This document shows, one piece after another, positions 1,515 to 11,936 of a DNA stretch of 11,936 nt. Under the pieces are notes generated by a model, which was given only the letters and a program-made list of their open reading frames with translations, did not search any database and was not told where the DNA came from. Every line of letters begins with the position of its first letter. The stretch's first letter is position 1. Origin of the DNA: a virus (Duplodnaviria > Heunggongvirae > Uroviricota > Caudoviricetes); IMG/VR virus record IMGVR_UViG_2681813004_000015, positions 1 to 11,936 of that record; one strand, written 5' to 3'. The position numbers were made by a program, and so were the translations under genes.

Positions 1515-2707
1515 TGGCAAAAGTGGCTGACGGGATCCGCTACGCCGAACGTGTTGTTGCAGGAGAAATTGTCGCTGGCGAATTTGTCCGTCTGGCCTGC
1601 CAGCGTTTTCTTGATGATCTGAAGTACGGCGAAGAGCGGGGGATTTATTTCAGTGAACCCCGTGCGCAGCACATCCTGAATTTCTACAAATTTGTGCCCC
1701 ATGTAAAAGGGGCGCTGGCAGGTCAGCCCATTGAGTTGATGGACTGGCATGTTTTTATCCTCATAAATATTTTTGGTTTTGTCATTCCGCTGGTGAATGA
1801 AGAGACCGGGGAAGTTGTCATGCGCAGCGATGGCAGCGGACGCCCGGTGATGGTGCGCCGGTTCCGGACGGCGTACAACGAAGTCGCCCGTAAAAACGCA
1901 AAATCAACCCTGTCATCGGGTATCGGTCTTTATATGACGGGGGCAGATGGTGAAGGCGGTGCTGAGGTGTATTCAGCCGCAACCACGCGTGACCAGGCCA
2001 GAATCGTGTTTGAAGACGCCAAAAATATGGTCAGAAAAGCCCGGTCGACACTCGGGCGGTTGTTTGATTTCAACAAGCTGGCGATTTACCAGGAGCAGAG
2101 CGCATCAAAATTTGAACCGCTTTCCTCGGATGCAAACAACCTGGACGGTCTGAACATCCACTGCGCCATTATTGATGAGCTGCATGCACATAAAACCCGC
2201 GACGTGTGGGACGTTCTGGAAACGGCAACCGGTGCCCGTCTGCAGTCCCTGTTATTTGGTATCACCACGGCGGGCTTTAACAAGGAAGGAATTTGTTACG
2301 AGCAACGCGATTACGCCATCAAGGTATTGCGAGGCTATAACAGTGACGTGGAGGGCGCGGTAAAAGACGACTCCTACTTTGCGATTATTTACACGCTCGA
2401 TGAGGGAGATGATCCGTTTGATGAAACGGTCTGGCAGAAAGCGAATCCGGGCCTGGGCATCTGTAAACGCTGGGATGATCTGCGTCGTCTGGCGAAAAAA
2501 GCGAAGGAACAGGTTTCAGCGCGGGTGAATTTTTTTACCAAGAAAGTAACATCACGCCGTAACAACAGTGCGACCTGTCCTGATTTTTTTAGTAACCAAA
2601 TGAAAGAAAAAGATTTTTTCTTGTTCGTCGTTTTTGTTTTTTCTGGAAGGTTCTGGCTGTTTTCATCATTTGTGTATTGCACTGTGTATTGCAAAAACGG
2701 GTTATAA
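1514..2707 (+). pseudogene. terL: terminase large subunit, 3'-truncated: ATPase domain only, terminase-like to about nt 2545
   Basis: N-terminal ~345 aa read as an HK97-family TerL ATPase domain. After ...ARVNFFTKK the frame runs through T-rich low-complexity codons (FFLFVVFVF...) into the int upstream region. No nuclease domain is present. Confidence 0.8.
2671..2693. repeat. two direct copies of TGTGTATTGCA separated by 1 nt, 20 bp upstream of int
   Basis: Exact 11-mer at 2671-2681 and 2683-2693. Lies in the AT-rich segment between the terL break and int, next to a short palindrome GAAAAAGATTTTTC at ~2607-2620. Candidate integrase arm-type or regulatory sites. Confidence 0.4.
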
Positions 2708-2712
2708 ATCAC

Positions 2713-3921
2713 ATGGCGCTAAACAAACTGAGCGATAAAAAACTTCGTTCCCTGCTTGGGCGCAGGAGTGAGAGGCAGGAAACCATCGCTGATGGTAACG
2801 GGCTTTCGGTACGGGTCAGTAAATACGGATGTGTTAGTTTTGTTTTCTTTTACAGACTGGCGGGAAGGGGAACCGCGCCCATCTGGCTGACACTTGGAAA
2901 ATATCCTGATCTGAGTCTCAAATCAGCGAGAGAGATGCGCGATCAGTGTCGAACCTGGCTTGCGGAGGGCAGAGATCCACGGATTCAGATAAAAATTGAA
3001 CGGGAAGCCACTTTGCAACCTGTTACCGTTCGTGAGGCACTTGAATACTGGCTTGATAATTATGCAATGGATAAGCGTAGGGGAGCAGAACATATCAGGC
3101 AGTGCTTTGGTAAACATATTTATCCGGTGATTGGTCATGTACCACTTAGTGATTGCTCTATATCTATGTGGATCAAGTGTTTTGACAAAATAAAAAAAGT
3201 AGCACCTGTACAGGCCGGAGCTTTGTTGCGTATATCAAAACAGGCGCTTAAATTTTGTAGGGTAAGAAAATACGCGATTAGTCATGAAATTGATGATCTT
3301 GAGGTCTGTGATGTGGGAAAAAAGTCTGCGCGAAGAAGCAGGGTTTTAACAGATGATGAAATCAGAGATTTATGGCGAAGTATTAATACTGATTATGACA
3401 ATCACGAATTATCATATGAAAACCGAATTATTTTACGTTTCCTGGTAGTTTTTGGTTGTCGACTGTCAGAAGTATTACTGTCGTCCTGGGTAGAGTGGGA
3501 TTTTGATAAGAAATTATGGCGCGTTCCCGCTGATCATAGCAAAAATGGCAGGGAAATAATCAGACCGATTCCTGATGGCATGTTTAACTGGTTAGTTACG
3601 TTAAAAAAAATAACAGGTAACAAAGAAAATGTGATTGGGTTTGATATGCGTCAGTGTACGGCAAGCGTAACTATCGGTAAGACATGGAAAAGGATGAAAC
3701 ACTCGGAAAAATGGACGGCGCATGATATGCGAAGAGTGTTTGCCACAAAGCTAAGTGATCATGGTTTTGAACATAATGTGGTTGAACAGTTGCTTGGGCA
3801 CACATTAGGCGGTGTTGCCGGGGTTTATAACAGAAGTCAGTATATGGACAGAAAAAAAGAAGCTATGAACTGGTGGTACGACTATCTGAATAAGCTAATT
3901 AGTGGTGACGGTAATGATTGA
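2713..3921 (+). CDS. int: tyrosine integrase, P4-integrase family
   Basis: N-terminal arm-binding domain pattern (GLSVRVSKYG...FVFFYRL...LTLGKYPDLSLKSAREMR) and C-terminal catalytic residues (R...HDMRR...LLGH...Y). ATG at 2713 (MALNKLSD) preferred over the upstream ATG at 2677. Confidence 0.92.
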   Translation: MALNKLSDKKLRSLLGRRSERQETIADGNGLSVRVSKYGCVSFVFFYRLAGRGTAPIWLTLGKYPDLSLKSAREMRDQCRTWLAEGRDPRIQIKIEREATLQPVTVREALEYWLDNYAMDKRRGAEHIRQCFGKHIYPVIGHVPLSDCSISMWIKCFDKIKKVAPVQAGALLRISKQALKFCRVRKYAISHEIDDLEVCDVGKKSARRSRVLTDDEIRDLWRSINTDYDNHELSYENRIILRFLVVFGCRLSEVLLSSWVEWDFDKKLWRVPADHSKNGREIIRPIPDGMFNWLVTLKKITGNKENVIGFDMRQCTASVTIGKTWKRMKHSEKWTAHDMRRVFATKLSDHGFEHNVVEQLLGHTLGGVAGVYNRSQYMDRKKEAMNWWYDYLNKLISGDGND

Positions 3922-4135
3922 AATAGTTACGCGTGAAGAACTTGAAAATGATAAAACAATCGACAGGATGATTAAGGAAGATGAATGTGCATGGTTAACA
4001 GCTCTTGGCAGGAGACACAGAGCATTACTTGAAAAGGAAGGAAAATTTCCACGGAAAATATGTATTGGCCCACAAACAAAAGTCTGGCGCTTATCTGAGG
4101 TGCTGGAATGGGTAAAGGGTGAATGGAAACCCTGA
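3914..4135 (+). CDS. alpA: AlpA-family DNA-binding protein (excisionase/activator type)
   Basis: Small HTH protein with AlpA-like motif (LLEKEGKFPRKICIGPQTKVWRLSEVLEWV). ATG at 3914 overlaps the int 3' end by 8 nt. Followed by a hairpin terminator. Confidence 0.75.
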   Translation: MIEIVTREELENDKTIDRMIKEDECAWLTALGRRHRALLEKEGKFPRKICIGPQTKVWRLSEVLEWVKGEWKP

Positions 4136-4156: not shown

Positions 4157-4185
4157 TCAACCCGTCTTTTGGCGGGTTTTTTTAT
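4157..4185 (+). terminator. intrinsic terminator after first alpA-like gene
   Basis: Hairpin AACCCG-loop-CGGGTT (4159-4178) followed by a T-run (TTTTTTTAT). Confidence 0.6.
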
Positions 4186-4198
4186 AGGTGATATTTTT

Positions 4199-4477
4199 AT
4201 GCAAAAATTTATTTATCCTACACCCGAAGAACGCATTCAGATTCTGAAAGAACATGGCGAACCGTATGATCGCCGTATACGCGAACATGAGTGTGCCAAT
4301 CGTACCGGGCTTTCAAGAAGCAGACGTTGGGTACTTGAACAGGAGGGAGCATTTCCTGCTCGTGCTCATTTAGGGAAAGTGTCTGTTTCCTGGTTGCTCT
4401 CTGATGTGCTCTGGTGGGTTATGCATCCGCCAGGAGTAAAGGAAGTAAACAGCCCATACAAAAACGCCAATAAGTAA
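4199..4477 (+). CDS. second AlpA-family DNA-binding protein (paralog)
   Basis: Motif LEQEGAFPARAHLGKVSVSWLLSDVLWWV parallels the upstream AlpA-like gene. ATG at 4199 has an AGGTGA RBS and lies just past the preceding terminator; the track start at 4169 falls inside the hairpin. Confidence 0.65.
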   Translation: MQKFIYPTPEERIQILKEHGEPYDRRIREHECANRTGLSRSRRWVLEQEGAFPARAHLGKVSVSWLLSDVLWWVMHPPGVKEVNSPYKNANK

Positions 4478-4516: not shown

Positions 4517-4534
4517 TATGTGAGGTAGAAAGTG

Positions 4535-5128
4535 ATGAATAAAAATATTGCCGCGACGGGCAAGGGTGACGCACGTCATATGAAAAAATTCTGTGATATT
4601 CGTGATCTGGTCGTTCTGCGCTTTGATAGTGTGAACGTTCGCGTGGTGTATCTGAACGGCGATCCGTGGTTTGTTGGCGCTGATGTGTGTGCGGCGCTGG
4701 AAATTAGCAACGTTACCGATGCTGTTTCAGTTCTGGATAGCGATGAGGTAATGACCCTAGCTTTAACCGAGGGTCATTCAGGTAAGCGTGGTGGTGCCAG
4801 AAGTTGGAATGTTGTATCAGAATCAGGTTTTTACAAGTTGATCGCCAGAAGTCGCAAAGCTGTTAATCCTGGCACGTTCGCCCATCGTTTCAGTAATTGG
4901 GTATTCAGAAATGTGATACCGGGTATCAGAAAAACGGGGGGTTATGGTATCCCGTGGGGCGCATTACAGGATTTTTCCCGCCGCAAAGAGCAATACCAGA
5001 TAAGTGCCAGCGAGAAGGGGAGGGAGCTACAGGCATGTAAGCGCAAAAAGCGTGAGCTGGAGGAAGAAGAAAAAAGGCTGATACGTGAATACCAGCCTGA
5101 GTTTTACTTTGGTGAGCGTATTCAGTAA
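4535..5128 (+). CDS. Bro-N domain protein (antirepressor-like) with C-terminal charged coiled-coil tail
   Basis: N-terminal region matches the Bro-N pattern (VRVVYLNGDPWFVGADVCAALEISNVTDAV...SGFYKLIARSRKAVNPGTFAHRFSNWVFRNVIPGIRKTGGY). GAGG RBS 9 nt upstream of ATG 4535. C-terminus is K/E-rich. Confidence 0.82.
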   Translation: MNKNIAATGKGDARHMKKFCDIRDLVVLRFDSVNVRVVYLNGDPWFVGADVCAALEISNVTDAVSVLDSDEVMTLALTEGHSGKRGGARSWNVVSESGFYKLIARSRKAVNPGTFAHRFSNWVFRNVIPGIRKTGGYGIPWGALQDFSRRKEQYQISASEKGRELQACKRKKRELEEEEKRLIREYQPEFYFGERIQ

Positions 5129-6248: not shown

Positions 6249-6453
6249 TCTGTCACTTACCGACCTTAACCGCATTCAGTTTCGTGAGAAATTTACCGGG
6301 CAGCTACTGGTCAATGTGGATAAAGGTCGCGTGGTGTGTAATTACCACCTGCCAGATGAAGCAATTGTCGCAACAAGGGAATCATTACAGGAACTCGCAG
6401 AACGTGCCGGAATGATTAATGCGAATATTCAGGGGGTGAGCCATGTGCAATAA
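6241..6453 (+). CDS. hypothetical small protein (70 aa)
   Basis: AGGAGG RBS immediately upstream of ATG 6241; overlaps the previous ORF by 8 nt and the next by 11 nt, indicating coupling. Confidence 0.55.
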   Translation: MINLSLTDLNRIQFREKFTGQLLVNVDKGRVVCNYHLPDEAIVATRESLQELAERAGMINANIQGVSHVQ

Positions 6454-6772
6454 CACCCGTCCGGACGCAGCCGCCGAAGCTATCAGAACGCTGATGCACG
6501 CGCTGATTGATATTTCATGCACGGCAGCAACCGCAGAAAAACACATTACCAGAGAGACCGAAGCTATCAGAACGCTGATGCACGCGCTGATTGATATTTC
6601 ATGCACGGCAGCAACCGCAGAAAAACACATTACCAGAGAGACGGAATATACAGGGGCAATAATCCCGCATTCGCTGGTCTACACACAGCTTACCGCTGAT
6701 ATGGCGCTGAATGAGGCTAAAGCCATCCTGATTGCTGATTGTGAAAATGGCGGGGGCGATTATGCGAAATAA
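6443..6772 (+). CDS. hypothetical protein (109 aa) containing a 28-residue exact tandem repeat
   Basis: GGGGTGA RBS upstream of ATG 6443. Residues EAIRTLMHALIDISCTAATAEKHITRET occur twice in tandem, encoded by an 84-bp direct repeat. Confidence 0.55.
   Translation: MCNNTRPDAAAEAIRTLMHALIDISCTAATAEKHITRETEAIRTLMHALIDISCTAATAEKHITRETEYTGAIIPHSLVYTQLTADMALNEAKAILIADCENGGGDYAK
6476..6643 (+). repeat. 84-bp tandem direct repeat, two copies, in-frame within a small ORF
   Basis: 6476-6559 and 6560-6643 are identical except for the final base (83/84). Confidence 0.95.
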
Positions 6773-6986: not shown

Positions 6987-7301
6987 ATGAAAAAGAAAAA
7001 TTCTGGCTTTACTGCCAGCGGTCACGCTCGGCCTGAAATCCGCCCCGGTGATATTTTCCGGGATAAATACGGCAGCACGATAACGATTAAAACCGTCGAT
7101 GATTTTCGTGTGACCTATATCCGCGAAGGTTATGCGCATCCCTGCGTGTCGTCACATATGCGCTTTGACAGGGAGTTCACCTTGGTAAGCAAAGCACCAC
7201 CAGCAGAATTAAGCGACATCGACAGAATCATGCGCGTTACAGGAATGGAACGCATTAAGGCAGTACGTGAAATTATTCGTGAACGGGGAAAGGCAAAATG
7301 A
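6987..7301 (+). CDS. hypothetical protein (104 aa), translationally coupled to the replication protein gene
   Basis: GGAG RBS upstream of ATG 6987; its stop overlaps the start of the downstream 707-aa gene (ATGA at 7298-7301). Confidence 0.55.
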   Translation: MKKKNSGFTASGHARPEIRPGDIFRDKYGSTITIKTVDDFRVTYIREGYAHPCVSSHMRFDREFTLVSKAPPAELSDIDRIMRVTGMERIKAVREIIRERGKAK

Positions 7302-9421
7302 AGCGCGCACCAAACTTAAAGCACCAGCCAGCCGACAAAATGACGGAGGTTATCATCTTTGCGGGTAGTGATGCGTGGAGCCATGCGAAAGAGTGGCAGG
7401 AATGGGCAGGTAAACATATTGCCGCCGACAATGTGCCGCCTGTCGTTCTGTCAGATGAACACCTGAAAGATATTACTGGTTATCAAATTATTGATGATAG
7501 CCGTCAGTGTGTGCGTATTTACCGCGCAGGGCACATCACTGAACGTAGCCTCACACAGATCGTCACGTTGCTGGCTGTGGCTGGCGTGAAGACCGTATAC
7601 GAATACGCGGGGATAACTGACACCAGCCCGGCGGATTTATCCGACCAGTTGCCTCGCCTCAAAGACGAATACGAGCGCGGGGAAAGTCTGGTGTTGCCCT
7701 TAAAGAAAAAAATCACAGAAAGCCCGGGTGATGATGAATTAAAGCCCCGCGTTGAAAGCCGCGCCGATGGTGTTTTCTGGGTAACGCCAAAAGTGGATAA
7801 GCAGTCAGGCGAAATTATCCGGCCTGAAACGTGGTTATGCTCCCCGCTTGAGCTACTGGGAACGGGGACAATCGGCAAAGAGCATTACCGCGTGATGCGC
7901 TGGAAAAAGCCAGCAAACCATGACGTCATCACGATGGCGGTTCCGTGCGGTGGCATTGGCGACCGTGACGGCTGGCGGCTGCTGAAAGACCACGGACTGA
8001 ACGTGACAACCAACGGTAAATACAGGGCTATCCTGGCTGACTGGATGCAGTTAAGCGGAAACCATGAGGAATGGCAGTTAAGCACAACAACGGGCTGGCA
8101 TTTTGGCGCGTACATCATGCCGGACGGTTCGGTCATTGGTGATTGCGAAAAGCCAGTCCTGTTTACCGGAAAAACGGCTGCCGTTAATGGTTATTCCGTG
8201 GCAGGAACGGCGGAGGGCTGGCGCGATACCGTGGCGCGACTGGCTGGTGGTAATCCGTCCATGATGCTGGGTGTGGCGGTATCGCTATCCGCACCATTAA
8301 TCGGGCTGGTGGGTGCTGACGGCTTCGGGGTACATCTTTTCGAACAGTCATCAGCAGGGAAAACCACCACACAGAATATCGCATCCAGTTTATGGGGGGA
8401 GCCGGACGCGCAGCGGCTGACCTGGTACGGTACAGCGTTAGGTATCGCCAACGAGGCAGAGGCACACAACGACGGGCTGTTACCCCTGGATGAAATAGGC
8501 CAGGCCGGAAACGCGCGGGAGGTGTCCACATCGGCCTATACGCTGTTTAACGGTTCCGGGAAATTACAGGGGGCGAAGGACGGCGGCAACCGGGAGATAA
8601 AACACTGGCGAACGGTGGCAATCAGTACCGGAGAAATGGACGTTGAAACATTCCTCAAAACGGAAGGGATAAAAGTCAAGGCGGGGCAGCTTGTCCGCCT
8701 GCTTAACGTGCCAATGGAAAAAGCCACACAATTTCACGAATACAGCACCGGAAAGGCGCACGCAGACGCGTTAAAGGATGCCTGGACAGAAAATCACGGG
8801 GCGGCGGGGCGTGAATGGGTTAAATGGCTGGCAGACCATCAGCAGGAGGCAAAGGACACGGTAAGGACATGCCGTGAGCGGTGGCGCAACCTGATACCGG
8901 AGAGCTACGGCGAACAGGTTCACCGTGTGGGGGAGCGATTTGCCATACTGGAGGCCGCGCTTGTGCTTTCAGGTCATGTTACTGGCTGGGATGAGCAGGA
9001 ATGCCGCGATGCCATACAGCATAATTTTAATGCCTGGGTGAAGGAGTTCGGCACGGGTAACAGGGAGTTTAAACAGATGGTTGAACAGGCAGAGGCTTTT
9101 TTAGCGTCGTTCGGATTCAGCAGATACCTTCCGTGGCCCAACACCGACGAGCGTGATTTACCGATTAAAGAGCTTGCCGGATACAGAAAGGGGAGTATCA
9201 GAAACGAAGATGACGAGTTCCGTTTTTACACGTTCCCGCATGTATTTGAGGGTGAGATAGCACAGGGATTTAATCCGTCTCACTTTGCCCGCGTGTTGAG
9301 TGCTGCCGGAATGCTGGAAGCGGGTAACGATCGCCGTTACAAGAAAAAGGCGCTCGGCAAAATTGGGGGGAAGCAGCATGTTTTTTACGTGCTGATGTTC
9401 CAGCCTGAGGCAGAAGATTAA
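7298..9421 (+). CDS. replication protein: P-loop NTPase of the DUF927 / primase-helicase type (PICI pri-rep-like)
   Basis: 707-aa ORF with Walker A (FEQSSAGKTT) and Walker B (GLLPLDEIGQ) motifs. General resemblance to DUF927-type replicative helicase/primase proteins of satellites and plasmids. Immediately followed by iterons. Confidence 0.8.
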   Translation: MKRAPNLKHQPADKMTEVIIFAGSDAWSHAKEWQEWAGKHIAADNVPPVVLSDEHLKDITGYQIIDDSRQCVRIYRAGHITERSLTQIVTLLAVAGVKTVYEYAGITDTSPADLSDQLPRLKDEYERGESLVLPLKKKITESPGDDELKPRVESRADGVFWVTPKVDKQSGEIIRPETWLCSPLELLGTGTIGKEHYRVMRWKKPANHDVITMAVPCGGIGDRDGWRLLKDHGLNVTTNGKYRAILADWMQLSGNHEEWQLSTTTGWHFGAYIMPDGSVIGDCEKPVLFTGKTAAVNGYSVAGTAEGWRDTVARLAGGNPSMMLGVAVSLSAPLIGLVGADGFGVHLFEQSSAGKTTTQNIASSLWGEPDAQRLTWYGTALGIANEAEAHNDGLLPLDEIGQAGNAREVSTSAYTLFNGSGKLQGAKDGGNREIKHWRTVAISTGEMDVETFLKTEGIKVKAGQLVRLLNVPMEKATQFHEYSTGKAHADALKDAWTENHGAAGREWVKWLADHQQEAKDTVRTCRERWRNLIPESYGEQVHRVGERFAILEAALVLSGHVTGWDEQECRDAIQHNFNAWVKEFGTGNREFKQMVEQAEAFLASFGFSRYLPWPNTDERDLPIKELAGYRKGSIRNEDDEFRFYTFPHVFEGEIAQGFNPSHFARVLSAAGMLEAGNDRRYKKKALGKIGGKQHVFYVLMFQPEAED

Positions 9422-9442: not shown

Positions 9443-9568
9443 TTGCGGGTTATGCGGGTTATCTTGTGTATAAGTGCATTAACTGTATGAATAAAAAGGA
9501 AATCAATAACCCGCACGTAACCCGCAAAACGGCAGTTATAACCCGCAAAAGTGCGATTATAACCCGCA
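9443..9568. repeat. iteron-type replication origin: six copies of ATAACCCGCA-like 10-mer flanking an AT-rich tract
   Basis: Direct copies at 9506-9515, 9517-9526 (GTAACCCGCA), 9538-9547 and 9559-9568, with start-to-start spacings of 11, 21 and 21 bp. Two inverted tandem copies at 9443-9462. AT-rich tract 9463-9505 between them. Confidence 0.65.
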
Positions 9569-9631: not shown

Positions 9632-10057
9632 ATGACAGCACAGATAGCGGCTTACGGGCGGCTGGTGGCTGACCCGCAGTTAAAGACCACCAGCAAAGGG
9701 ACACAAATGGCGATGGCGAGTATGGCGGTTCCCCTGCCGTGCAGCCAGGCAGATGACGGAACGGCGACGATGTGGTTATCCGTCCTGGCGTTTGGCAGAC
9801 AGGCCGACGCACTGGCCAGACACCACAAAGGCGAACTGGTGAGCGTGGCGGGTAACATGCAGGTAAGCCAGTGGACAGGCCAGAACGGCGAAACGCGGCA
9901 GGGCTGGCAGGTCATCGCAGACAGCGTAATCAGTGCGCGGACAGTGCGACCGGGCGGCAAAAAAGGCCAGCAGGGCCAGGCTACTGACGCACTGAACAGG
10001 GCAAAACAACAGACAGGCCAGCACGATGATCCGTACGGGGACGGGATACCGTTTTAA
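9632..10057 (+). CDS. ssb: single-stranded DNA-binding protein (short phage/plasmid-type SSB)
   Basis: OB-fold pattern parallels E. coli SSB (GRLVADPQLK..., WLSVLAFGRQADALARHHKGELVSVAGNMQVSQWTGQNGETRQGWQV), a G/Q-rich linker, and C-terminal tail ...DDPYGDGIPF resembling the canonical DDDIPF tip. Confidence 0.82.
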   Translation: MTAQIAAYGRLVADPQLKTTSKGTQMAMASMAVPLPCSQADDGTATMWLSVLAFGRQADALARHHKGELVSVAGNMQVSQWTGQNGETRQGWQVIADSVISARTVRPGGKKGQQGQATDALNRAKQQTGQHDDPYGDGIPF

Positions 10058-10072
10058 GCAGTGAGGTACAGC

Positions 10073-10354
10073 ATGATTAAAGACAGCAAAGCGGAAGAAC
10101 TGGAGGCTAAAGGGCTGTACCGGAGAGCGGCGGCACGTTGGGCTGATGTTATGTGGCTGGTGAGCACTGACAAGGAGCGCGAACAAGTGGCAAAGCGTCG
10201 CGCGGAATGTATCCGTAAGGCAGCGCGCCAACCAGTCATACCGGATAATTTCGGAATACTGAAAGAGGCCATAAACCGCACACATACCGGGATGGGCTTA
10301 CAGAAACCTGGCGGTGAGATGTTCAGGAACTACCCGAAAAAAAGGGATAATTGA
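10073..10354 (+). CDS. perC: PerC-family transcriptional regulator (Pch-like)
   Basis: N-terminus MIKDSKAEELEAKGLYRRAAARWADVM... matches the PerC/Pch signature. GAGG RBS 6 nt upstream of ATG 10073; the track start at 10061 is GTG. Confidence 0.75.
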   Translation: MIKDSKAEELEAKGLYRRAAARWADVMWLVSTDKEREQVAKRRAECIRKAARQPVIPDNFGILKEAINRTHTGMGLQKPGGEMFRNYPKKRDN

Positions 10355-10399
10355 TAACGGTTGTTAACTGTTTCTGGTATCGTGGCAGCAGGAGGAAAC

Positions 10400-10648
10400 A
10401 TGCCAGTGACATTTGAAGAAGTCCAGCAACATAAAAAGTTTCATGGTTTTGATGATCTGGAAACCACGACAGCAAAAAAATATCGCCGTCTGCTTTCTTC
10501 CGATGCGTTGTTTGTTGTGGATCATCATGATTTTCTGCGCAGCTCACTGACCGGGGAAATTTTCGCAACCAACCGTGAGCAGGTGGAAGCGATGATCGAA
10601 TATCTGTGGAAAATAAGGCGCAGAATGCGTGATCCCGTGAAACGGTAG
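10400..10648 (+). CDS. hypothetical small protein (82 aa) downstream of perC
   Basis: Strong AGGAGG RBS 3 nt upstream of ATG 10400; followed by a strong terminator. A second near-identical copy lies at 11165-11413. Confidence 0.6.
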   Translation: MPVTFEEVQQHKKFHGFDDLETTTAKKYRRLLSSDALFVVDHHDFLRSSLTGEIFATNREQVEAMIEYLWKIRRRMRDPVKR

Positions 10649-10652
10649 AATA

Positions 10653-10687
10653 ATAATGGCCTGGTATTTTCCAGGCCATTATTTTTA
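10653..10687. terminator. strong bidirectional intrinsic terminator
   Basis: Perfect 10-bp stem AATGGCCTGG / CCAGGCCATT (10655-10664 / 10671-10680), loop TATTTT, T-run downstream and A-rich tract upstream. Confidence 0.75.
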
Positions 10688-10735
10688 GAAGTGTTGCTGA
10701 ATGAACATTGCTTTTTTCAGTTCATTTTCTGACAT
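10685..10735 (-). pseudogene. remnant of the 157-aa minus-strand gene: first 14 codons only, then deletion junction
   Basis: 10693-10749 matches 11880-11936, which holds the RBS and first codons (MSENELKKAMFIQQ) of the intact gene at 11449-11922. Here the frame ends after 16 codons at the junction with the terminator. Confidence 0.7.
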
Positions 10736-10809
10736 AGTTCGTTCCTCCTGATTAACGAGCAGAAAATGTACGGAACAGCTTATTTATTTTTTCAGGTTTT
10801 GTAAATTAT

Positions 10810-10896: not shown

Positions 10897-11119
10897 GGAC
10901 GTTTGGGCTGATGTTATGTGGCTGGTGAGCACTGACAAGGAGCGCGAACAAGTGGCAAAGCGTCGCGCGGAATGTATCCGTAAGGCAGCACGCCCACCAG
11001 TCATACCGGATAATTTCGGAATACTGAAAGAGGCCATAAACCGCACACATACCGGGATGGGCTTACAGAAACCTGGCGGTGAGATGTTCAGGAACTACCC
11101 GAAAAAAAGGGATAATTGA
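10897..11119 (+). pseudogene. 5'-truncated second copy of perC (lacks first ~21 codons, RBS and start)
   Basis: Homology to perC begins at the codon for ARWADVM. Upstream is unrelated sequence with a 1-nt insertion at the junction. Longest ORF is the internal-Met fragment 10916-11119, which carries one substitution versus copy A (Q to P). Confidence 0.7.
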
Positions 11120-11164
11120 TAACGGTTGTTAACTGTTTCTGGTATCGTGGCAGCAGGAGGAAAC

Positions 11165-11413
11165 ATGCCAGTGACATTTGAAGAAGTCCAGCAACATAAA
11201 AAGTTTCATGGTTTTGATGATCTGGAAACCACGACAGCAAAAAAATATCGCCGTCTGCTTTCTTCCGATGCGTTGTTTGTTGTGGATCATAATGATTTTC
11301 TGCGCAGCTCACTGACCGGGGAAATTTTCGCAACCAACCGTGAGCAGGTGGAAGCGATGATCGAATATCTGTGGAAAATAAGGCGCAGAATGCGTGATCC
11401 CGTGAAACGGTAG
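11165..11413 (+). CDS. hypothetical small protein (82 aa), second copy
   Basis: Same RBS and ORF as 10400-10648 with one amino-acid difference (H to N). Confidence 0.6.
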   Translation: MPVTFEEVQQHKKFHGFDDLETTTAKKYRRLLSSDALFVVDHNDFLRSSLTGEIFATNREQVEAMIEYLWKIRRRMRDPVKR

Positions 11414-11417
11414 AATA

Positions 11418-11451
11418 ATAATGGCCTGGTATTTTCCAGGCCATTTTTTTA
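11418..11451. terminator. strong bidirectional intrinsic terminator, second copy
   Basis: Stem AATGGCCTGG / CCAGGCCATT (11420-11429 / 11436-11445), loop TATTTT, T-run 11444-11450. Serves the converging genes on both strands. Confidence 0.75.
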
Positions 11452-11922
11452 GAAGTCGATCTCTGTATCGCGATTAAATTCATCGCTAAGGTAAAGTGCT
11501 TCGCTTGGGCATTTTCCGTTTTCCAGTAATGTTTCCCAGAAATCTTTATCGAAACACCCCTCAAGATACAGATAGCGGCAGATGTGAAGTAAATCACTTC
11601 GTGTCCATCCGTGCATGCTGCTACTTGTTACACCATATTCACTTTCTAGTTTATAGAATGTGAGCGCCTCCCGGTCATGCCAGGCTTTGCACAGACGATC
11701 GTATATCTTTTTAGCTTTGTTTTTAGATGTGCCGAAAAACTCTTCGTAAATTTCATGTGGGCGAGTAGGAATGCTTCCGTCGCCATCCTGCAAGAAAGGA
11801 TAAACATCTGCCTCCCAGGCATACACGTAAGAATCGCTGAACTCATCATAGTGTTTACCAAGGTGGAGAATCTGCAATCGTTGCTGAATGAACATTGCTT
11901 TTTTCAGTTCATTTTCTGACAT
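11449..11922 (-). CDS. hypothetical acidic, aromatic-rich protein (157 aa), function unknown
   Basis: Minus-strand ORF with AGGAGG RBS (plus 11931-11936) 8 nt upstream of ATG (11922). Converges on the bidirectional terminator. Rich in D/E and Y/F/W. No family recognised by eye. Confidence 0.7.
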   Translation of the reverse strand: MSENELKKAMFIQQRLQILHLGKHYDEFSDSYVYAWEADVYPFLQDGDGSIPTRPHEIYEEFFGTSKNKAKKIYDRLCKAWHDREALTFYKLESEYGVTSSSMHGWTRSDLLHICRYLYLEGCFDKDFWETLLENGKCPSEALYLSDEFNRDTEIDF

Positions 11923-11936
11923 AGTTCGTTCCTCCT

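Follow-up and report, generated by a model that had tools for sequence, protein, structure and literature searches.

The window analysed here, 11,936 nucleotides of phage DNA, contains a large terminase gene that loses its terminase character shortly before an integrase gene. The question raised by this locus is whether a satellite has integrated inside the terL gene of its potential helper or whether the gene end is the scar of a deletion or rearrangement. The helper prophage genes seen in the window lie upstream of the island on the same (+) strand. They encode an Rz-type lysis protein (10-492; Pfam Phage_lysis, E 7e-50), an HNH endonuclease (535-885; Pfam HNH, E 1.9e-16) that belongs to an HK97-type HNH-TerS-TerL packaging set, a small terminase of the P27 family (1032-1514; Pfam Terminase_4, E 3.4e-25) and the truncated large terminase, TerL'.

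The open reading frame at 1514-2707 encodes 397 residues with a Pfam TerL_ATPase match at residues 112-268. The TerL_nuclease match at residues 283-349 covers only positions 2-68 of the 286-position profile. The intact 585-residue TerL of an unoccupied prophage in E. coli Z1323CEC0011 (L124) was used as the reference. Residues 1-343 of TerL' were identical to it at all 343 positions and the remainder was unrelated, which puts the break inside codon 343 (nt 2540-2542), where the core TTACCAA (2535-2541) ends. The 5' part of the helper terL that is retained (codons 1-343, 1514-2541, + strand) thus comprises the ATPase domain plus roughly 60 residues from the start of the nuclease profile, as judged from the Pfam matches and the identity to the reference. 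The earlier note, which had proposed such an alignment, read the frame as terminase-like to about nt 2545, within 4 nt of the break. Its statement that the nuclease domain is absent holds for the remaining ~220 profile positions, which are displaced, and not for the ~60 that are kept. As the comparison with relatives below shows, the ATPase domain remains with the late operon, and most of the nuclease domain is shifted ~15 kb downstream.

The 171 nt that follow the break (2542-2712, + strand, 36% G+C) are T-rich and form the island-side arm of attL (P' arm). The T-rich sequence past the break, and an integrase beginning about 170 bp further on at 2713 on the same strand, had both been described correctly before. 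The designation of this stretch as the int promoter region was unsupported because, from the junction to int, a crude consensus scan of the + strand found neither a sigma-70-like promoter nor a terminator; the stretch is better described as the P' arm. The island-side attL sequence given in SuppFile3 of PMC10111431 matches this stretch exactly over nt 2542-2640. At 2671-2693 (+ strand) the arm carries the doubled motif tgTGTATTGCactgTGTATTGCa, which is specific to the helper-embedded PICIs (HE-PICIs), occurs nowhere else in the window (0 occurrences expected by chance), and is presumed to be an arm-type binding site. Relative to the attP centre, published copies of the doubled motif tgTGTATTGCantgTGTATTGCa lie 132 +/- 2 bp away on the downstream side and 81 +/- 2 bp away on the upstream side (PMC10111431). 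The window copy starts 133 nt past the core centre (2538); in the relatives ETEC1749 and KFu019 a second copy ends ~79 nt short of the centre of the attR core. A tRNA or tmRNA target of the classical P4 type was considered and rejected, since ARAGORN found no tRNA or tmRNA and Rfam no family at E<=0.1 within the window, in agreement with the initial impression. The integration target is instead a triplet of protein-coding codons in terL.

Because the window stops 9.4 kb into the island, its right end was read from close relatives. The best genome matches were ~97% identical and mosaic. ETEC4090 has a junction 100% identical to that of the window, but was rejected as a guide to attR because a deletion extends from its DUF927 gene into the helper tail genes (gp17). 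In ETEC1749 and KFu019, the missing 3' part of terL directly follows an island of 15,448-15,943 bp (15.4-15.9 kb). The 7-bp core TTACCAA is present at both island ends in ETEC1749, and TCACGAA takes its place at both ends in KFu019. Alignment of attB, attL and attR located the exchange at this core, so that the presumed crossover block of attL (2535-2541, + strand) comprises terL codons F341-T342-K343. Removal of the island in silico from the relatives restored in-frame, uninterrupted TerL reading frames of 585 residues, with TerL_nuclease matched over residues 283-563 (E 5e-53). Beyond the island the helper-like prophage resumes with portal, protease, capsid and tail genes. Furthermore, a survey of 5,426 complete E. 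coli genomes identified 905 with a contiguous attB and an intact terL versus 36 with the occupied attL junction, the latter with two covarying core alleles. The truncated terL end without the island was found in none of these 5,426 genomes.

The scar reading, which takes the 3' half of terL as lost and the integrase island as an unrelated neighbour of the truncated gene, could appeal to the presence of only the left junction in the window and to the secondary deletion inside the ETEC4090 composite, but it was rejected as exceedingly improbable in view of the exact terL continuation after the island, the repeated core, the frame restored on excision, a terL end found in no surveyed genome without the island, a junction that recurs in 36 genomes with two covarying core alleles, and the position of that junction at the published distance from the doubled motif. 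The satellite reading of the earlier note is therefore favoured by the remnant, the core repeat, the excision product and the 905 intact sites, all of which came from the comparisons it had suggested: the sequence beyond the island, a direct repeat of the junction and prophages without the island. On sequence evidence, a ~15-kb satellite sits by site-specific recombination in the terL gene of a lambdoid E. coli prophage.

The same site has been described previously. Tommasini, Mageeney and Williams (2023, NAR Genom Bioinform 5:lqad036; PMC10111431) defined the HE-PICI site group A:Terminase_1:245, listed as A_Terminase_1_246, with a published Att Identity of 'ttaccaa' and the variant tcacgaa. 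E. coli 042, UMNF18, CP016546, CP015229 and CP027447, which match the window junction, are listed there as A_Terminase_1_246 HE-PICIs at matching coordinates. The window agrees with this group in target gene, codon, 7-bp block and island-side attL, all identical, and also in the doubled TGTATTGC motif and its spacing, the ~15-kb size and the order int-alpA, Bro, primase-SSB; nothing of substance differs apart from private duplications of the window copy. In the relatives, attL and attR share a short identity block and there is no replacement sequence, so that excision in silico rebuilds the late gene, as expected of an HE-PICI. The placement of the integrase in the HE-PICI clade rests on the near-identity of the window junction and int to the listed genomes; the window Int is 99-100% identical to that of other terL-embedded islands. 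It is 45-62% identical to the integrases of motif-bearing islands at other late-gene sites, compared with 42% to a chromosomal cf-PICI Int. From these matches the island is identified as an HE-PICI of site group A:Terminase_1:245/246, an element already known and published in 2023 (PMC10111431).

Eco567.11capE, which interrupts the lambda-E-like capsid gene of prophage 50icd in E. coli NRG857c, is the only HE-PICI member with induction data. On induction, the composite excised and replicated first and precise excision of the satellite came later; no virions were recovered (PMC10111431). This element shares with the window island the integrase clade, the embedded co-oriented layout, the doubled motif and an attP without replacement sequence. 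It differs in its target (capsid codon 80, with a 10-bp block) and in its size of ~11 kb without terS, whereas the relatives of the window island have HNH, TerS and TerL. Moreover, the integrases of capsid-E-site islands in IMG/VR are ~48% identical to the window Int, and in that group the interrupted frame closes ~150 nt before int.

The island genes follow the PICI backbone of int, alpA and primase/rep and stand in the HE-PICI zone order Integration, Bro, Replication, Late, with all features below on the + strand. The Integration zone consists of a tyrosine integrase of P4/PICI type and HE-PICI clade (2713-3921, ATG at 2713, 402 residues; Pfam Arm-DNA-bind_3 and Phage_integrase), an AlpA-family regulator or excisionase (3902-4135, overlapping the stop codon of int; Phage_AlpA, E 2.5e-9) and a second AlpA-family HTH protein (4169-4477; Phage_AlpA, E 7.2e-10). 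By the crude consensus scan, the first terminator-like hairpin with a T-run past the junction lies after int-alpA at 4159-4178. The Bro zone encodes a Bro-N protein (4532-5128; Bro-N, E 2.1e-16). The Replication zone begins with a DUF4222 protein (6987-7301; E 8.8e-19) and continues with a DUF927 primase/helicase-type replication protein (7298-9421; E 1.4e-45) and an SSB (9632-10057; E 8.4e-16). Between the last two, TAACCCGCAAAA iterons with 21-nt spacing (9518-9559) mark a putative satellite origin; KFu019 has three copies of this iteron. A PerC-family regulator follows (10061-10354; PerC, E 3e-35). Two features are private to this copy, a tandem duplication of 84 bp and the duplication of a PerC-distal segment. 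The island runs past the window end at 11936 and the Late zone is seen in the relatives only. There, in KFu019 and ETEC1749, the island carries capsid, protease, portal, connector, HNH, TerS and TerL genes and no tail genes, and its own TerL is 31% identical to that of the helper, a level at which the TerS, TerL and HNH of the island would not be expected to make up for the split helper gene.

Judged from gene content, with the late zone read from the relatives, the island has a body similar to that of a capsid-forming PICI (cf-PICI; prototype EcCIEDL933, Alqurainy et al. 2022/2023), which likewise is ~15 kb long and combines int-alpA-primase with head and packaging genes. Elements of this type assemble small capsids of their own and borrow nothing but tails from the helper. 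A cf-PICI-like island of O157:H7 is colinear with the island body (late module 81% identical in nucleotides, DUF927 protein 83% in amino acids). That island differs in its chromosomal site between roxA and phoQ, in having no doubled motif and in its Int, the one that is only 42% identical to the window Int. The likeness to phage P4 and P4-like elements extends to a P4/PICI-type integrase with Arm-DNA-bind_3 and catalytic domains at the left end and to AlpA-family and Bro-type genes; the window island differs in having no tRNA or tmRNA target. A C4/isrK immunity RNA was not matched in the window by Rfam, and Psu, Delta and Sid had no Pfam match among the 19 window ORFs scanned.

The course of events is reconstructed as follows. 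As the comparison with relatives shows, the P4/PICI-type integrase of the satellite joined its attP to an HK97-type lambdoid terL at 7 bp that the two have in common, which in terL make up codons 341-343 (F-T-K). In the attP, the core TTACCAA has a doubled TGTATTGC motif on either side, ~80 bp upstream and 132 bp downstream. The attB junction of the excised state is predicted to read GAATTTTTTTACCAAACACATGAATG and the satellite attP junction ATATTCTTACCAAGAAAGTAAC. At attR, a second tgTGTATTGC...TGTATTGC motif is expected ~80 nt before ATATTCTTACCAA, where the sequence would pass into ACACATGAATGTGTGGGT and then terL codons 344-585. Since attP brings no replacement 3' end, the prophage cannot produce a full-length TerL as long as the island occupies the gene, and precise excision at the core would restore the 585-residue protein. 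We infer that the helper TerL is disabled until excision at the terL site, the same inference that the HE-PICI authors drew (PMC10111431). The island genes are co-oriented with the late operon and the promoter and terminator consensus is lacking before int, so late transcription of the helper probably enters int-alpA and thereby sets off satellite excision late in induction, which would delay and reduce helper packaging. With a cf-PICI-like late zone such as that of the relatives, the island would need little beyond helper tails. The explanation as a whole, a site-specific satellite insertion that splits the terL of a putative helper and is reversed by excision, is given a probability of about 0.9.

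Comparable gene splitting is familiar from the regulated gene integrity or 'active lysogeny' elements, for example skin in sigK of B. subtilis and the phage in comK of Listeria, where excision restores the split gene. The window island shares with them an attP without replacement sequence and a target that would be inactive until precise excision. The difference is that the split gene here is part of a second mobile element, the helper prophage, and that it is presumably the satellite, not the cell, that benefits from the switch.

A satellite embedded in a helper packaging gene can thus be recognised correctly from a reading of the sequence alone. The literature has covered the biology itself since 2022/2023, including both the 7-bp core and the arm motif, and the remaining value of the locus is as a well-delimited terL-embedded example for experiments. 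The joining of an HE-PICI integration module to a cf-PICI-type body is a link that is not spelled out in the HE-PICI (PMC10111431) or cf-PICI papers. The link points to a satellite that takes away the packaging enzyme of its helper and, at the same time, needs nothing from it but tails.

One possibility considered is that Int synthesis is translationally linked to the truncated terL', the int start being supplied with ribosomes that translate the helper late operon. Past the junction, the terL' frame remains open for 54 unrelated island codons and ends with TAA at 2705-2707, 5 nt before the int ATG at 2713, and no Shine-Dalgarno-like sequence is visible before int in the window. A T6 run at 2614-2619 (+ strand) is part of T_TTT_TTC (2614-2620), which stands in X_XXY_YYZ register in the terL frame. 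A census of this run gave 13 T6 and 5 T7 loci; T7, which occurs in finished genomes such as that of 042, places terL' in frame with int, and PGAP annotates an N-terminally extended integrase in ETEC1749. Coupling may therefore take the form of the stop 5 nt upstream (T6), of a TerL'(1-343)-linker-Int fusion of approximately 800 residues (T7) or of a -1 shift on T_TTT_TTC. If it were true, satellite excision, and hence repair of the helper terminase, would be tied to late expression of the helper at the levels of both transcription and translation, and the T6/T7 run would be a heritable switch between the two modes. However, such an open frame arises by chance in 2-7% of shuffles, and a frame survey of 119 IMG/VR loci with the doubled motif led to rejection of the open frame as a general HE-PICI trait. 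The frame in the CLP_protease:110 group likewise passes the int start (to +50), but in most site groups, capsid-E:80 and Terminase_1:132 among them, the late-gene frame ends 100-165 nt short of int. Moreover, in the Arsenophonus member of the A:Terminase_1:245 group the frame ends after 19 codons, as read from the printed attL, and the authors, with the remark 'reannotate terminase/int fusion', treat the fusion as an annotation artefact (PMC10111431). Coupling is thus regarded as quite improbable.

A further possibility, unlikely on balance, is that terL is a mere landing pad: the surrounding prophage would be no functional helper, or the composite would be a decaying fossil. Helper packaging would then be neither disabled nor repaired in a regulated manner, and the island would rely on other phages that enter the cell. 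Consistent with this are the colinearity with the chromosomal O157:H7 island and the induction of the prototype cf-PICI by specific phages, not by resident prophages (Alqurainy et al. 2022/2023). ETEC4090 is decayed, and many helpers appear truncated according to the HE-PICI authors, in addition to the virions that were not recovered (PMC10111431). However, the whole integrase clade repeatedly targets prophage late genes, co-oriented, at 14 sites (PMC10111431), which is hard to explain without some benefit from the embedded position, and the precise excision of 11capE after replication of the composite also speaks against this reading. The insertion into a putative helper is further favoured by the prophages surrounding the island in KFu019 and ETEC1749, in which both the head and the tail modules are apparently complete.

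In its left 2.5 kb, the window carries late genes of a lambdoid, HK97-type prophage (the helper): an Rz lysis gene (10-492), an HNH endonuclease gene (535-885), a P27-family small terminase gene (1032-1514) and an interrupted terL reading frame (1514-2707) whose product matches the ATPase domain of the large terminase (TerL) at residues 112-268. When this product was aligned with the intact 585-aa TerL of E. coli Z1323CEC0011, where the site is unoccupied, residues 1-343 were identical and the sequences were unrelated beyond. Identity to the empty site at the DNA level extends as far as ...GAATTTTTTTACCAA, whose last base is nt 2541; from there the window continues with island sequence, GAAAGTAACATC..., and the G+C content is about 0.52 on the prophage side of the junction and about 0.40 on the island side. 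The earlier note, which placed the end of terminase-like sequence at about nt 2545 and int about 170 bp further on (171 nt as measured), was correct on both points, and its observation of an integrase-bearing island abutting a truncated terL is confirmed. The TerL nuclease domain, described there as absent, is retained at positions 2-68 of the 286-position profile and the rest is missing from the ORF.

Between the junction and int, the T-rich stretch earlier described as non-protein-like and as int promoter region corresponds to the P' arm of attL (the left island end); a consensus scan detected no promoter or terminator on the + strand of this arm. The first terminator-like hairpin downstream of the junction was found at 4159-4178, after int-alpA. 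This hairpin is bidirectional; it directly follows the first alpA-like gene and overlaps the 5' end of the second AlpA-family ORF. As had been noted, there is no tRNA at the junction: ARAGORN identified no tRNA or tmRNA in the window and an Rfam search of the window gave zero matches at E<=0.1. Outside the window, the helper prophages have three to four clustered tRNA genes, for Ile, Lys, Thr and Gly, ahead of the lysis genes (KFu019, L001 13303-13612; ETEC4090, L002 13564-13873; ETEC1749, L003 13843-14153); this cluster is unrelated to the satellite att site. KFu019 also carries a GNAT acetyltransferase gene (L001 15671-16156) and extra small ORFs between the lysis genes and HNH that the window helper lacks.

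Since the window ends 9.4 kb into the island, the far end was examined in close relatives. In 23 complete E. coli genomes, a single locus contains at least 80% of the window. In KFu019, a 15,943-bp island is flanked by the core TCACGAA at both ends (L001 19343-19349 and 35286-35292) and is followed by a gene annotated 'TerL endonuclease subunit, missing N-terminus', then by the helper portal, protease and capsid genes. The 15,448-bp island of ETEC1749 is followed by the same arrangement and has at both ends the core of the window, TTACCAA (2535-2541). Thus the missing 3' portion of terL and the junction repeat that the earlier note proposed to look for are both at the island far end in these two relatives. 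Removal of the island at the core in silico gave an in-frame 585-aa TerL in both, with the nuclease domain back at residues 283-563 (E 5e-53). Differences between the two core alleles are confined to wobble positions of the F-T-K codons; the alleles are synonymous and covary between the island attP and the helper terL. Tyrosine recombinases require identity across a 6-8 bp overlap region, which the 7-bp block fits. The comparison shows, at the level of sequence, that Int-mediated recombination at this core inside terL splits the gene, that the island supplies no replacement 3' end and that excision would rebuild terL exactly. The ETEC4090 locus (L002 23940-25652) is a decayed composite, whose DUF927 gene is joined to the helper tail-completion gene gp17 by a deletion that removed attR, together with the late zone of the island and the head genes of the helper; the attL junction of this locus is still 100% identical to the window.

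Helper-embedded PICIs (HE-PICIs) were defined by Tommasini, Mageeney and Williams in 2023 (PMC10111431; preprint July 2022). The 491 elements occupy 14 sites, distributed over nine late genes of prophages, and all belong to a single integrase clade. One site, A:Terminase_1:245 (A_Terminase_1_246 in the supplement), has the 'Att Identity' 'ttaccaa' or 'tcacgaa', and the window matches this group completely. Positions 2542-2640 agree at every base with the island-side attL sequence given in that supplement, and five genomes with the window junction (042, UMNF18, CP016546, CP015229 and CP027447) are in that paper at matching coordinates. The HE-PICI-specific doubled motif tgTGTATTGCantgTGTATTGCa is reported on both sides of the attP centre, at 132 +/- 2 bp downstream and at 81 +/- 2 bp upstream (PMC10111431). 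Within the window the motif occurs once, at 2671-2693, where 0 matches are expected by chance, and its distance from the core centre is 133 nt; in KFu019 and ETEC1749, about 79 nt separate the end of the upstream copy from the centre of the attR core. Because it belongs to this published group, the feature is already known.

Lambdoid late transcripts are Q-antiterminated, and antitermination would take those of the helper through the island. Helper late transcription would enter the co-oriented int-alpA and island genes and satellite excision would therefore be late, while the helper would make no complete TerL as long as the island is in place. The entry of late transcription into the island, the late excision and the lack of complete TerL agree with the authors' model; the only HE-PICI with experimental evidence of late excision is the capsid-gene element 11capE (PMC10111431).

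The possibility was considered that the reading frame running from terL', the 5' part of terL, toward int is functionally significant. After 54 open, island-derived codons the frame ends 5 nt short of the int ATG, and no Shine-Dalgarno-like sequence is visible ahead of int. The T-run at 2614-2619 is T6 in 13 of 18 loci, where terL' stops 5 nt before int, and T7 in the other five, including ETEC1749, where terL' is fused in frame to int. The same fusion is indicated for the finished genome 042 by a junction match that is longer by one base and by the remark 'term_int fusion' in the HE-PICI paper. Furthermore, T_TTT_TTC (2614-2620) is in slippery-heptamer register, and a -1 shift would enter the int frame. 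However, such significance could not be substantiated: an open frame has a 2-7% likelihood by chance, the frame is closed 100-165 nt upstream of int in most other site groups, and in an Arsenophonus member of the same group it closes after 19 codons in our reading of the printed sequence. PGAP annotates an N-terminally extended 'integrase' in ETEC1749, the T7 genome examined, and the HE-PICI authors mark terminase/int fusions as annotation artefacts, for reannotation (PMC10111431).

Island genes begin at 2713, on the same strand as the helper late genes, and encode a tyrosine integrase with an Arm-DNA-bind_3 domain, two AlpA-family proteins, Bro-N, DUF4222, a primase/helicase-type DUF927 protein, SSB and PerC. 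Between the DUF927 gene and ssb, TAACCCGCAAAA iterons with 21-nt spacing (window 9518-9559; KFu019, L001 26362-26436) are a likely satellite origin. A perfect 84-bp tandem duplication (6474-6641; 28 codons, in frame) lies inside ORF 6443-6772; judged from overlapping BLAST segments, the unit is present once in KFu019 and ETEC1749. The PerC-distal segment, single in relatives, is duplicated at 10138-10749 and 10903-11936 (spacing 765 bp; 300 nt at 99% identity), with a 57-nt exact repeat (10693-10749 and 11880-11936); the first copy lacks about 420 nt encoding a minus-strand hypothetical gene. AACCCGC-type repeats in both orientations cluster near the KFu019 island right end (L001 about 34840-35000).

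In KFu019 and ETEC1749 the island late zone encodes major capsid, prohead protease, portal, connector, HNH, TerS and a complete TerL, and contains no tail genes. The gene layout of these relatives is that of capsid-forming PICIs (cf-PICIs), a term absent from the HE-PICI paper, which does cite a study from the same period on the gain of late genes by PICIs (PMC10111431). In all, 538 E. coli genomes carry the 6-kb late module; among them are O157:H7 strains, where its identity is 81%. In O157:H7 ATCC 43888, an island of about 15 kb with the cf-PICI layout (L123 3696-18127) occupies a chromosomal site between roxA and phoQ. Its DUF927, SSB and PerC products are 83%, 68% and 60% identical to those of the window, whereas Int is only 42% identical and the doubled motif is lacking. 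Replication and late modules are common to this and the terL-embedded island, as if integration modules had been exchanged on a shared satellite body. Self-integration into the island's own terL is unlikely, because the island-encoded TerL is only 31% identical to that of the helper and differs at the att site (QWVEMLTKRFNIW vs. ARVNFFTKHMNVW).

A deletion or rearrangement scar, the second reading in the earlier note, was rejected because the same terL end without the island occurs in none of 5,426 complete E. coli genomes. The other reading, a satellite integrated inside the helper terL, is supported by this census together with the far junction of the relatives and the 585-aa TerL restored in silico. 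The comparison with island-free prophages showed the reconstructed 600-bp attB to be contiguous in 905 of these genomes, and the occupied attL junction was found in 36. Some genomes carry both, in different prophages.
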